Shown here: positions 60,275 through 62,065 of the stretch, piece by piece | How positions within the stretch are numbered: position 1 is the stretch's first letter | Layout: every line of letters begins with the position of its first letter | Assembly: GCA_021159015.1 (NCBI GenBank) | Contig: JAGGSQ010000069.1 | Coordinates: forward strand, 1,332 to 65,331 | DNA: 64,000 nucleotides | Origin: Candidatus Omnitrophota bacterium | Lineage (GTDB): Bacteria > Omnitrophota > Gorgyraeia > Duberdicusellales > Duberdicusellaceae | Reading direction: 5' to 3' | Translations under genes and position numbers: made by a program | The notes under the pieces: generated by a model | Database searches by the model: none | Seen by the model: only the letters and a program-made list of their open reading frames with translations | Told to the model about the DNA's origin: nothing

Positions 60275-60749
60275 TGCTTAGCCTTCTTTTGCCTTTGGTC
60301 TTTTCAAAAATAACTCCGTCTTCTTTGTATTTCTTGAGAAGAAAATGAGTAGTAGTACCCCGGACTGAATTTAAAGGCGCCAGTTTCTCAGCCACAAAGT
60401 TAGCTACCGTTTGAATATCCTTCCCCTCTACCACTAAAAGCAAATCAAAAGTTCCTGAAACCAAATAGCAAGTCTTCACCTCTTCAAATTTATAAATCCG
60501 CTCCGCGATATAATCAAACCCTAAGTCTTTTTGGGGTGTAATTTTTACCTCGATTAAGGCAAGAACTTTGTCTTTTTCTTCTCTGAGTTTGTTTTTATTA
60601 ATGAGAGTTTTATATTTGAGGATAATTCCTTTCTTTTCATACTTTTTGATGCGACTGGCTACTTCTTTTTGACTGCGACCTGTAACTTTGGCTAGGTCTT
60701 CTAAAGATATACGCGCATTGTTTTCTAATAACTCTAACAGCTCATCCAT
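60264..60749 (-). CDS. Lrp/AsnC-family transcriptional regulator
   Basis: N-terminal HTH (LENNARISLEDLAKVTGRSQKEVASRIKK) and a C-terminal RAM/AsnC_trans_reg domain. Overlaps the aminotransferase start by 11 nt. Confidence 0.85.
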   Translation of the reverse strand: MDELLELLENNARISLEDLAKVTGRSQKEVASRIKKYEKKGIILKYKTLINKNKLREEKDKVLALIEVKITPQKDLGFDYIAERIYKFEEVKTCYLVSGTFDLLLVVEGKDIQTVANFVAEKLAPLNSVRGTTTHFLLKKYKEDGVIFEKTKGKRRLSIAY

Positions 60750-60838
60750 CTTTCCCCCTTTTGATTAATTAAAAGTTCTTTCCCAAATTATATATAAATT
60801 ATATAGGTATAGCAATATCTATTTACGAGCAGAAAAAG

Positions 60839-60913
60839 TAGCCCCAACGGGATTTGAACCCGTGTCTGATGGCTGAGAACCACCTGTCCTAGGCCGGGCT
60901 AGACGATGGGGCC
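60839..60913 (-). tRNA. tRNA-Glu (anticodon CUC)
   Basis: Reverse complement is GGCCCCATCGTCTAGCCCGGCCTAGGACAGGTGGTTCTCAGCCATCAGACACGGGTTCAAATCCCGTTGGGGCT. TCGTCTAG...AGGAC is the Glu-type D-arm. Anticodon loop TTCTCAG. Followed by CTTTTTCT. Confidence 0.75.
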
Positions 60914-60927
60914 ACAAGAAAAGACTT

Positions 60928-61009
60928 TGCCGGGAGAGGGATTTGAACCCTCACGCCTTGCGGCATACGCCCCTCAAACGTATGTGTCTGCCAATTCCAC
61001 CATCCCGGC
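60928..61009 (-). tRNA. tRNA-Leu (anticodon GAG), class II with a long variable arm
   Basis: Reverse complement is GCCGGGATGGTGGAATTGGCAGACACATACGTTTGAGGGGCGTATGCCGCAAGGCGTGAGGGTTCAAATCCCTCTCCCGGCA. 7-bp acceptor stem, anticodon loop TTGAGGG, a 14-nt variable arm and T-loop TTCAAAT. Confidence 0.75.
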
Positions 61010-61400
61010 AAAAGCGTCTCACTTGACACAGAACCCAATCTAAAACAACAACCTTTGTCTTTCTGCCGCAGAGTGTGGGCAGTTTAATAATATAAACCGC
61101 TTTGCGGTAAAACTGTCCAACATCCCGGCGACAACGTCTATCTTAAAACAAAACTAATCTAAAAGAACTGCGTTTATCTTACCGCTAAACAACGTGGGCA
61201 ATGTAATATAAAAGATTACTTTGTAATAACATTGTCCAACATCCCGGCGACAACGTCTATCTTAAAATAAGGTCCAAATTTAAAAGAGCAGCGTTTATCT
61301 TTTTTCCGCCAGACTTGCGGGCAGAAGAAATATACACCTGCTTCGCAGATACTTCTGTCCAACATCCCGGCAGCAACCTAATTCCCACGAAAAACACTTA
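61010..61400 (-). repeat. tandem array of ~120-bp repeat units, each reiterating the first ~16 nt of tRNA-Leu (GCCGGGATGTTGGACA) plus a short hairpin and a TATATT box
   Basis: CATCCCGGC recurs at 61001 (the true tRNA), 61121, 61240 and 61363. Units B and C share the 35-nt CTGTCCAACATCCCGGCGACAACGTCTATCTTAAAA. Each unit has its own hairpin (ACCGC-AAAG-GCGGT, ATTAC-AAAG-GTAAT or CTGC-GAA-GCAG) next to TATATT or TAATAT. None has a T-arm or anticodon arm. Confidence 0.6.
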
Positions 61401-61828
61401 TCCCAAAGAACACCTTAGCAGTGAGATAAATTATAGCATAAAACCTTTCTGCCGCAATTATTTTAAAGTCCAAAATTTTTTCTTAATCAGATAAAACAAT
61501 CTTTCTCATGACGCTTTTCTTCTCCCGCAATCTCTTTCACCTCTGCATCTAAATATGCTATGCGGGCTCTCCGTAAAGCTCAAACCAAATACCCGCCCCA
61601 AAATAAAAAGAAATAAACTTTAAGCCAGTTTGGTGTTACTTCTTTTCTCACATCAGCAAGTTTGTGTCAGAAACGATAATGGGCATATTCTTCCTCGGCA
61701 ATCTTAGCTAGAATAGCTTTGGTTTTTTGTCTTTTACCATCTCGCCCAACTTTCTATAAATAAAATGTTCGTCATCTCGTTGCGTTGAAAACGGCGCAAT
61801 TTCTCTAATAATTCTGGCCCGTTTTTGT

Positions 61829-62065
61829 TCATACGGCTTCCACCCGCTTAATCTGCGGCACTCTCTCCCGCAAGGCTTGCTCTACTACCATCTTCAAAGT
61901 AAACTCCCCCATAAAACAACTGCTGCAGGCTCCTCTAAGTCTCACTTTTACTTCTCCTTCTCCAGTTACCTCTACTAGCTCTAAATCTCCTCCATCCGCT
62001 ACTAAGTAAGGCTTTATTTCCTCAAGAGCCGCAGTAACCTTTTCTGGCAAACTTTTCTTTTCCAT
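61829..62065 (-). CDS. NifU-like (Nfu-type) Fe-S cluster carrier domain protein
   Basis: EEIKPYLVADGGDLELVEV...GACSSC matches the Nfu C-terminal domain with its CxxC. I placed the start at MEKKSLPEK (ATG 62065). Confidence 0.7.
   Translation of the reverse strand: MEKKSLPEKVTAALEEIKPYLVADGGDLELVEVTGEGEVKVRLRGACSSCFMGEFTLKMVVEQALRERVPQIKRVEAV

Follow-up and report, generated by a model that had tools for sequence, protein, structure and literature searches.

Tandem repeats that carry a tRNA terminus are known from the Escherichia coli tyrT-tyrV locus, in which we checked three tandem repeats at a spacing of 178 nucleotides (nt), with the last repeat extending 19 nt into the tyrV 3' end and with rttR and tpr annotated. 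Tandem stable-RNA promoters about 120 bp apart are represented by rrn P1/P2. Spacer RNAs of tRNA operons can also function themselves, as with the sponge 3'ETS-leuZ (3' external transcribed spacer) of glyW-cysT-leuZ (PMC8166272, citing Lalaouna et al. 2015) and the internal transcribed spacer (ITS) of metZWV. Here, we describe an array of three tandem units, each carrying a copy of a tRNA-Leu 5' end, which lies upstream, in transcription order, of a tRNA-Leu(GAG)/tRNA-Glu pair on the minus strand of a 64,000-nt stretch of Candidatus Omnitrophota bacterium (GCA_021159015.1, contig JAGGSQ010000069.1, positions 1,332–65,331), hereafter the window. We put at about even the chance that the array consists of tandemly duplicated spacer/5'-leader modules of a tRNA operon that are transcribed with the tRNA and selected for a hairpin.

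Layout of the array and its paralogue

The preliminary description of the locus had reported three extra copies of a 16-mer upstream of tRNA-Leu(GAG) at a period of 119–123 bp. These copies are exact, at 61114, 61233, and 61356, and the units follow each other with start-to-start spacings of 120, 119, and 123 nt. The features of the locus are listed below.

60838–60913, minus strand: tRNA-Glu(CUC), second gene of the tRNA pair (ARAGORN; Rfam tRNA, 52 bits)
60928–61009, minus strand: tRNA-Leu(GAG) (Rfam tRNA, 50.7 bits; ARAGORN 60927–61010)
61010–61129, minus strand: U1 (type C), 120 nt, with the 16-mer, the hairpin, and then the true leader of tRNA-Leu(GAG)
61114–61129, minus strand: 16-mer GCCGGGATGTTGGACA of U1, exact; nt 1–14 equal the tRNA-Leu(UAA) 5' end
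61130–61248, minus strand: U2 (type B), 119 nt
61233–61248, minus strand: 16-mer GCCGGGATGTTGGACA of U2, exact; 3' part of the 35-mer at 61233–61267
61249–61371, minus strand: U3 (type A), 123 nt
61356–61371, minus strand: 16-mer GCCGGGATGTTGGACA of U3, exact
~61372–61475, minus strand: U0, a degenerate unit remnant with TTGGAC..TTGCGGCAGAAAG in common with the units; start of the leader

When up to three mismatches were allowed, the only extra match of GCCGGGATGTTGGACA in the 64 kb was the 5' end of tRNA-Leu(GAG), and four matches were reached in 0 of 100 shuffles. The 35-mer TTTTAAGATAGACGTTGTCGCCGGGATGTTGGACA is identical at 61233–61267 and 61114–61148, as had been noticed before. U1, U2, and U3 align end to end, and the genuine leader of the tRNA, which forms the 3' part of U1, has homologues in the corresponding parts of U2 and U3. 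U0 has the words TTGGAC and TGCGGCAGAAAG in common with the units. Pairwise identity between units is 70–72%, yet the 16-mer is exact in all three; because of this low identity, Tandem Repeats Finder (TRF) did not report the array in the window. No unit is called a tRNA by ARAGORN or Rfam, which call only the two real tRNAs, in agreement with the earlier statement that the units cannot fold as tRNAs. The tRNA genes examined in the species (window 60927–61010 and 60838–60913; L050:7133–7301) encode no 3' CCA, and a U-rich stretch follows each of them.

That the repeats reiterate the 5' end of tRNA-Leu is correct for tRNA-Leu(UAA) and not for the adjacent gene. The tRNA-Leu(GAG) begins with GCCGGGATGGTGGAAT, with G at position 10, and matches the 16-mer of the units at 13 of 16 positions only, whereas tRNA-Leu(UAA), a gene that lies outside the window, starts with GCCGGGATGTTGGA, which the first 14 nt of the units reproduce exactly. 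The module has three parts, namely nt 1–14 of tRNA-Leu(UAA) through an invariant A14, a two-tier stem-loop, and a copy of the tRNA leader of ~65 nt. A second array was found in strain L006 (GCA_053940905.1) downstream of gmk-rpoZ, in the order rpoZ, tRNA-Cys, a degenerate unit, a B-type unit, tRNA-Leu(UAA), tRNA-Val, and thrS. The two arrays lie at ~22.2–22.5 kb and ~47.3–47.6 kb of JBMXKP010000001.1 (85.9 kb), ~25 kb apart and inverted, with dnaA between them. The transcription of the tRNAs of each array points away from the origin region; the GC skew of the window, negative throughout, fits this direction. In array 1, that of tRNA-Leu(UAA), the units are located between two tRNAs of the operon directly after gmk-rpoZ, where relatives leave no room for a promoter. 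In L006, position 10 is G in each of the two GAG-side units, as it is in tRNA-Leu(GAG), which suggests conversion from the neighboring tRNA. Arrays flanking many tRNAs, which would have pointed to a generic repeat family, were encountered only in part: the second array precedes tRNA-Leu(UAA), and no units were found before tRNA-Thr, tRNA-Cys, tRNA-Glu, or tRNA-Val at the loci examined.

The tRNA-Leu(UAA) locus could be followed into relatives. L054, whose Gmk is 66% identical, has the order rpoZ, tRNA-Cys, a headless unit, one full unit, tRNA-Leu(UAA), and tRNA-Val. Omnitrophota with ~50% Gmk identity keep the synteny rpoZ-(tRNA-Cys)-tRNA-Leu(UAA)-tRNA-Val-thrS and have no units, with a 62-nt spacer in L057 and the tRNA directly after rpoZ in L055. 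Because L054 keeps the architecture while the ~50% relatives keep only the synteny, the module appears to be a clade-specific invention in the tRNA-Cys/tRNA-Leu(UAA) spacer that later became common to the GAG locus. The relatives of Lrp at 70–73% identity have no tRNA upstream and are uninformative for the array. No further copy was found by BLAST or the covariance model R1 in the 64-kb window or in 17 other loci; a dispersed repeat resembling repetitive extragenic palindromic (REP) elements or miniature inverted-repeat transposable elements (MITEs) was rejected, since no copy lies away from a tRNA there, and no Rfam family covers the units even at E ≤ 10. In a metagenome scan for GCCGGGATGKTGGACA-N20-45-TGCCCRC, 15 of the 16 matches were chance hits in coding DNA of unrelated high-G+C genomes, and L045 was the sole true relative.

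A nested hairpin in each unit

Everything that had been listed for each unit is present, namely a small hairpin with an AAA or GAA loop, a TATATT box, and a GTGGGCA/GCGGGCA element (plus strand), but these are not separate elements; all are parts of one nested hairpin per unit. Its outer stem, GGACAG-nnn / nnn-CTGCCC, comprises 9–11 bp, begins at the tRNA-derived G12, G13, and A14, and contains an invariant A14·C mismatch. The inner stem of 4–5 bp closes a loop AAA, GAA, GTAA, or TAAAA, and the TATATT box corresponds to the internal loop, which is U/A-rich, 7–10 nt long, and confined to the 3' side. The three hairpins of the window are as follows (z relative to shuffles; bits from R1).

61077–61118, minus strand: nested hairpin of U1; outer stem GGACAGTTT/AAACTGCCC with A·C mismatch, inner ACCGC-AAA-GCGGT, 3' internal loop TTATATTATT; z −2.9 in tRNA sense, −4.6 on the opposite strand; 61.1 bits
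61196–61237, minus strand: nested hairpin of U2; outer stem GGACAATGT/ACATTGCCC, inner ATTAC-AAA-GTAAT, internal loop CTTTTATATT; z −3.1 in tRNA sense, −4.8 on the opposite strand; 56 bits
61319–61360, minus strand: nested hairpin of U3; outer stem GGACAGAAG/CTTCTGCCC, inner (TA)TCTGC-GAA-GCAGG, internal loop TGTATATTT; z −2.3 in tRNA sense, −3.6 on the opposite strand; 54.8 bits

Six hairpin types were compared, including A, B, and C of the window, A' and a degenerate C' of other strains, and D of another lineage. Ten of the 16 pairs change on both sides across the six types, among them all five inner pairs, and 88% of the cells are paired as against 69% in shuffles and 32–41% when the partner columns are slid, in a structure-guided alignment (A4) that was fitted to the fold by hand and therefore inflates pair counts. 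The observed co-variation was reached in 0 of 500 shuffles on four of five measures and in 19 of 500 on the measure of further standard pair types. In L054, the outer stem is identical to that of U3 and keeps the A·C mismatch, and the inner stem is new but compensated (TTTGC-GTAA-GCAAA). The hairpins are also steadier than shuffles on both strands, with z from −2.3 to −4.4 in tRNA sense and from −3.6 to −4.8 on the opposite strand. The co-variation across lineages argues that the hairpin may be selected as a single-stranded fold.

Two further folds were rejected. An acceptor-like closing helix, formed by nt 1–11 with the 20 nt after TGCCC, is favorable in A, C, and D (shuffles as good, 0.02–0.10) and not in A' and B; an ancestral hairpin in the headless unit is no better than shuffles either in L054 (z 0.19) or in the degenerate unit of the window species (z −1.1). 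An origin of the units through TTGGA microhomology is a guess. A decayed whole tRNA-Leu was likewise rejected, since beyond nt 14 the similarity to either tRNA-Leu is no better than in shuffles (p 0.04–0.78); the short words CAAAGCGG, CTG(T)CCC, and CTCTxCGGCA were noticed in both the units and tRNA-Leu. The earlier suggestion of promoter/leader units left by amplification and decay of tRNA genes, which of the explanations first offered comes closest to the data, thus survives in one respect, the leader being homologous across copies, and fails in the decay, with no similarity past nt 14, and in the promoter consensus, which is inconsistent.

Several known element classes were also compared with the units. 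The array is not CRISPR-like, as the preliminary description stated, because the inter-repeat segments are 70–72% identical and no cas family is called within 10 kb of either array. An integron attC site would consist of RYYYAAC ... GTTRRRY in this order within an imperfect palindrome, accompanied by an intI gene and open reading frame (ORF) cassettes; the 16-mer contains GTTGGAC, but the box order is reversed and there is no proper inverse core, ORFs, or intI. ToxI-like repeats were excluded by the period of ~120 nt, compared with ~34–45 nt in type III toxin-antitoxin systems, and by the tRNA genes that follow. By eye, none of a dif/Xer site, a sigma-54 promoter, a MerR-type spacer operator, DnaA boxes, and Lrp sites fits. 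A leader peptide was rejected as well, since the frames that start at the ATG of the 16-mer, with 8, 27, and ~49 codons, differ from unit to unit. The repeats are crossed by a 59-aa ORF on the plus strand (61315–61494) and by a ~49-codon frame on the minus strand from the ATG at 61365 (U3 16-mer); these frames are probably non-coding, as they are not conserved between units, and recall the doubtful tpr ORF of the E. coli tyrT repeats.

Strain variation, transcription signals, and a proposed origin

The array is real and not an assembly artefact, a concern raised in the preliminary description. It is identical on seven distinct contigs from four samples (ENA, JGI), with variant arrays on others, and contig L007, which was checked in full, is identical over the entire 1091-nt intergenic region. 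Homologues of the adjacent Lrp/AsnC gene place the organism in Candidatus Omnitrophota. Of the contigs read, 23 code for the exact Lrp protein, and several other contigs end within the array. Strains that are 1.0–2.6% apart over 1650 nt of flanking coding DNA carry two to four units in differing order, namely A-B-C in the window, A'-C in L006, degenerate C'-A'-C-B in L005, and ...A' adjoining the tRNA in L001. A and A' disagree at ~11 of their 24 hairpin positions and so represent separate alleles or paralogues, not recent point mutants. L005:9100–9830 joins the rpoZ-tRNA-Cys flank of array 1 to tRNA-Leu(GAG)-tRNA-Glu-Lrp (compared with L050:6750–7300 and L006:9030–9830). The join is either a real inversion of the ~25-kb dnaA segment by inter-array recombination or a chimera through identical units; L045 independently supports only the tRNA-Cys-C'-A' junction.

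A different arrangement was observed in L013:290–580 (ENA ERZ2433807 NODE_2298; same species, identical Lrp protein), in which tRNA-Leu(GAG) and the array are absent and tRNA-Ala(GGC) precedes tRNA-Glu. The first 16 nt of this tRNA-Ala (GGGGCCGTAGCTCAGC) are repeated 205 nt upstream, and the copy is followed by two CCCCGA...TCGGGG inverted repeats ~107 nt apart, whose fold is no better than shuffles.

The cassette-like behavior of the units, with hairpin alleles A, A', B, and C in varied order and number and with A and A' so different between strains only 1–2.6% apart, might indicate site-specific recombination sites or scars, in which the 14–16-mer would be an att-like core and the units mini-cassettes, remnants of elements once integrated into the 5' part of tRNA-Leu, or sites of a programmed origin-region inversion. 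The L005 join between the flanks of the two arrays and the different tRNA of L013, with its own first 16 nt copied upstream, are consistent with this idea. Nevertheless, we consider it quite improbable, since neither array has a called integrase or recombinase family within 10 kb, the copied segment is from the 5' rather than the 3' part of the tRNA, only ~105 nt lie between the cores, homology over the full unit length makes homologous recombination sufficient, and the L005 join could be a chimera through units identical over at least 119 nt. The known integrases that target tRNA genes duplicate 3' rather than 5' segments. The same features led to the rejection of an integrase att duplication and leave the earlier proposal of integration and excision scars poorly supported.

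Transcription into the array and the tRNAs has one good candidate start in the region.

61430–61457, minus strand: promoter-like site TTGCGG-N16-TGcTATAAT (extended −10) in U0, read off the sequence; putative promoter

This site is missing from the list of the promoter scan because its first hexamer matches at three of six positions. The units themselves could alternatively be tandem promoter, or promoter plus terminator, cassettes acting at the DNA level, with TGGACA as −35 and TATATT as −10. Promoters ~120 bp apart would then drive tRNA-Leu or short RNAs, and the hairpin with its U-rich tail would stop or pause transcripts from upstream. A −35-like TGGACA and a TAT-rich box exist in every unit type, and TGGACA is two changes away from the TGGAAT of the tRNA in the direction of TTGACA, that is, nearer to the −35 consensus. 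TATATT serves as the −10 of the consensus promoter TTGACA-17-TATATT before tRNA-Glu in L013, the L054 unit is flagged by the promoter scan (TGGACA-16-AATATT and TGGACA-18-TATTTT), and the terminator scan flags the C and A hairpins. However, a sigma-70 promoter was defined by −35 and −10 hexamers 16–18 nt apart within each unit, and in the window species TGGACA and TATATT are separated by 19 nt in C, 21 nt in A, and 22 nt in B, and none of its units passes the scan; the B-type units, which have the worst spacing, adjoin the tRNA in two arrays. Moreover, co-varying stems are needless in a promoter spacer, the inner stems of B and A', almost purely A-U, would make poor terminators (an intrinsic terminator being taken as a G+C-rich stem with a U tract directly after it), and about one promoter-like match per region is expected by chance in such AT-rich DNA. 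Promoter cassettes are the main rival account, although we regard them as rather unlikely.

Other signals and neighbors of the array were observed as well. A box A(A/G)ATA(A/G)A(C/T)G(C/T)T occurs twice per unit (e.g., window 61130–61190; L054:1870–1905), and the spacing of the pair, 42 nt in the window species and ~21 nt in L054, corresponds to whole helical turns; the paired boxes may be a protein-binding feature. The ~370 nt between a NifU-like gene and the array (window 61460–61830, minus strand) contain no gene-strand ORF of at least 50 aa but resemble pieces of a broken gene in shifted frames, e.g., AKIAEEEYAHYRF and DAEVKEIAGEEKRHEKD, and the same sequence is present in other strains; this region may be a pseudogene. 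A 24-nt unit occurs twice (79% match; TRF) within the Lrp/AsnC coding sequence at window 60642–60688.

Taking the observations together, we infer the following course for the tRNA-operon modules. They would have originated by tandem duplication in the tRNA-Cys/tRNA-Leu(UAA) spacer of an ancestor that the window species shares with one sister lineage, the duplicated segment running from the spacer hairpin through the leader to tRNA nt 1–14, with one breakpoint after tRNA nt 14. The modules would then have reached tRNA-Leu(GAG), which lies inverted on the other side of dnaA at a distance of ~25 kb. The number, order, and alleles of the units would keep changing through unequal recombination and gene conversion, both inside each array and from one array to the other, with a homogenization that is concerted but incomplete, and inter-array recombination may also invert the origin-proximal segment. 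The 14-nt tRNA copy would largely be the duplication junction, held identical by conversion against a tRNA that cannot change. Transcription in tRNA sense would start from the TTGCGG-N16-TGcTATAAT site of U0, and the ~410-nt leader would be removed by RNase P. Because the units of array 1 sit inside a tRNA operon and those of the window lie downstream of the promoter-like site, the units are most likely part of the pre-tRNA. The hairpins would most likely be RNA elements of this precursor, contributing to folding insulation, processing, stability, or partial attenuation, the last of which would act through the hairpin and its U-rich tail.

Several points weigh against this account, in addition to the hand-fitted alignment. 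All four hairpins fold 0.2–4.6 kcal/mol better on the strand opposite the tRNA, because the A·C mismatch turns into G·U there, and the whole 448-nt leader has no significant structure (z −1.5). Compensatory change in quasi-palindromes can come from template switching without selection. The 14-mer, being perfectly conserved, could have a separate function outside the proposed course, and the recurrence of 5'-end units before tRNA-Leu(UAA) in other phyla, described below, hints at a cause more specific than random duplication.

Two further alternatives were weighed. If the units were opposite-strand small RNAs, the plus strand would supply a hairpin and then a single-stranded stretch that could base-pair with the tRNA-Leu 5' end, acting as an anti-tRNA or anti-leader RNA, and the stabler plus-strand hairpins, with the mismatch converted to G·U, would be accounted for. 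Against this, the scans gave no consistent promoter or terminator on the plus strand, the neighboring genes and both tRNAs are all on the other strand, and some stem extensions of U3 pair by G·U on the tRNA-sense strand alone. The mismatched A is position 14 of the tRNA, so that the asymmetry may be inherited from the tRNA copy. We regard opposite-strand RNAs as highly improbable. For the hairpins as such, the strand signals conflict, since folding favors the opposite strand yet some extensions need a sense-strand G·U.

The array could also be a non-functional repeat, that is, a neutral duplication under concerted evolution, with the pairing preserved by template switching in quasi-palindromes and the 14-mer by conversion from the tRNA. 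It is confined to one small clade, its units are quickly gained, lost, and reshuffled between near-identical strains, the exact 35-mers indicate recent conversion, and partial copies of tRNA ends near tRNA genes were common in the loci fetched. Neutrality is nevertheless unlikely in our view, since the units have diverged by 28–30% and yet keep their register, outer-stem sequence, and pairing, the outer stem is 100% identical across lineages with 66% Gmk identity while the leader part diverged, and the array has persisted at two loci.

Similar units in other phyla and relation to known systems

A wider scan of one genome per species was made for two GCCGGGATGKTGGA sites 95–125 nt apart, a range imposed by the query, so that the common period of the matches is no evidence. 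It returned nine loci, none of them from the window species, and in seven of the nine a tRNA-Leu(UAA) follows one or two units starting with its first 14–35 nt. These seven belong to Chloroflexota (one), Cyclobacteriaceae (two), and Patescibacteria-type genomes (four, one labelled only 'bacterium'). The Patescibacteria-type units, one or two in tandem and 112–114 nt long (L025:768–1078, L026:4589–4787, L028:2490–2688, L029:4843–5155), contain tRNA nt 1–21, an 11-bp hairpin with a conserved UGGGA loop, and then an anticodon-arm-like hairpin; in the 11-bp hairpin, eight of 11 pairs are compensated and 96% of the cells are paired. Rfam at gathering score detected only tRNAs in these four loci and nothing over the units of L029 at E ≤ 10, and our literature searches found no account of them; the unit is a candidate for a new conserved element. 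Like the Omnitrophota units, they begin with the 5' end of tRNA-Leu(UAA), followed by a hairpin with a co-varying stem. However, there is no sequence similarity beyond the tRNA part, and the tRNA homology of the Patescibacteria units runs into the anticodon arm; they look to be of independent origin.

In the two Cyclobacteriaceae loci (L023:2156–2300, L024:1625–1748), an upstream copy of the 5' half of tRNA-Leu(UAA), to about nt 35, is broken after nt 15 by a CCTGCC...GGCAGG palindromic insert, and in L024 the GGTGGAA-CCTGCC junction is met again on the downstream side of the tRNA. This recurrence suggests a REP/MITE-like element, one end of which resembles a tRNA. Copies of tRNA 3' ends, tandem or single, were noticed downstream of tRNAs in L030:3995–4310, L027:6301–6449, L026, L028, and L029; in a metagenome-assembled genome of Planctomycetia, the 3' end of tRNA-Ala is copied twice (+103 and +219), and several Patescibacteria tRNAs are treated likewise. 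These downstream copies are of the classical 3'-end reiteration type.

It is tempting to see in the tRNA-Leu 5'-end plus hairpin units of Omnitrophota, Patescibacteria, Chloroflexota, and Cyclobacteriaceae a class of cis-acting leader RNAs for leucine tRNA genes that has evolved repeatedly and independently. Such RNAs would mimic the tRNA 5' end and so tune the folding of the precursor, its RNase P processing, or the output of tRNA-Leu, and the number of units would be a dial that evolves fast. We put this idea forward tentatively and think it improbable, though the recurrence of 5'-end units before tRNA-Leu(UAA) in other phyla makes a systematic survey worthwhile. If the Omnitrophota modules work at the RNA level, they would add a new structured element to those of bacterial tRNA operons, one that mirrors the long-unexplained tyrT/rtT repeats, and their polymorphism in copy number and order would constitute a natural experiment on the tuning of tRNA-Leu supply in an uncultured phylum. 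Whatever their function, the two inverted arrays on either side of dnaA could plausibly serve as a substrate for origin-region inversion, and they demonstrably cause contigs to break, and possibly to be joined chimerically, when the organism is assembled from metagenomes.

The array shares some features with several described systems. With rrn P1/P2 it has in common the period of ~120 bp, the location upstream of a stable-RNA operon, and the −35/−10-like boxes, but the box spacing of 19–22 nt in the window species is outside the sigma-70 range, and the units hold a part of the structural gene and a hairpin. As in the att repeats left by integrases, an exact short duplicate of a tRNA segment lies beside an intact tRNA and varies between strains; integrase repeats, however, copy the 3' part and bracket kilobases of cargo with an integrase, whereas the Omnitrophota array consists of 5' copies in mutually homologous units of ~120 nt.

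A further parallel is provided by 3'ETS-leuZ and the ITS of metZWV, which are non-tRNA segments of polycistronic tRNA transcripts with a possible role of their own, and the context of tRNA-Cys followed by tRNA-Leu(UAA) is the same as in E. coli cysT-leuZ (PMC8166272). The known spacers of this kind are single and unrepeated and pair with Hfq-dependent small RNAs; the Omnitrophota units are known from their sequence.

The preliminary description took the pattern to be undescribed. No Rfam family and no literature account of 5'-end tRNA reiterations were found, but the 178-bp tyrT repeats of E. coli (RttR/rtT RNA) are a mirror-image precedent and, of the analogues we verified, the closest, being tandem, non-coding, present in about three copies, adjoining and co-oriented with a tRNA, and equipped with a tRNA terminus in each copy. 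In E. coli it is the 3' end that is reiterated, downstream of the tRNA, whereas the Omnitrophota units reiterate the 5' end and are located upstream; the period is 178 nt in the former and ~120 nt in the latter; and the tyrT copies are 95% identical, in contrast to the 70–72% of the units with their co-varying hairpins. The two are unrelated in sequence and by the RtT covariance model of Rfam, even at E ≤ 10. The Omnitrophota array thus extends a known theme, that of tRNA-end reiterations and of spacer elements in tRNA operons.

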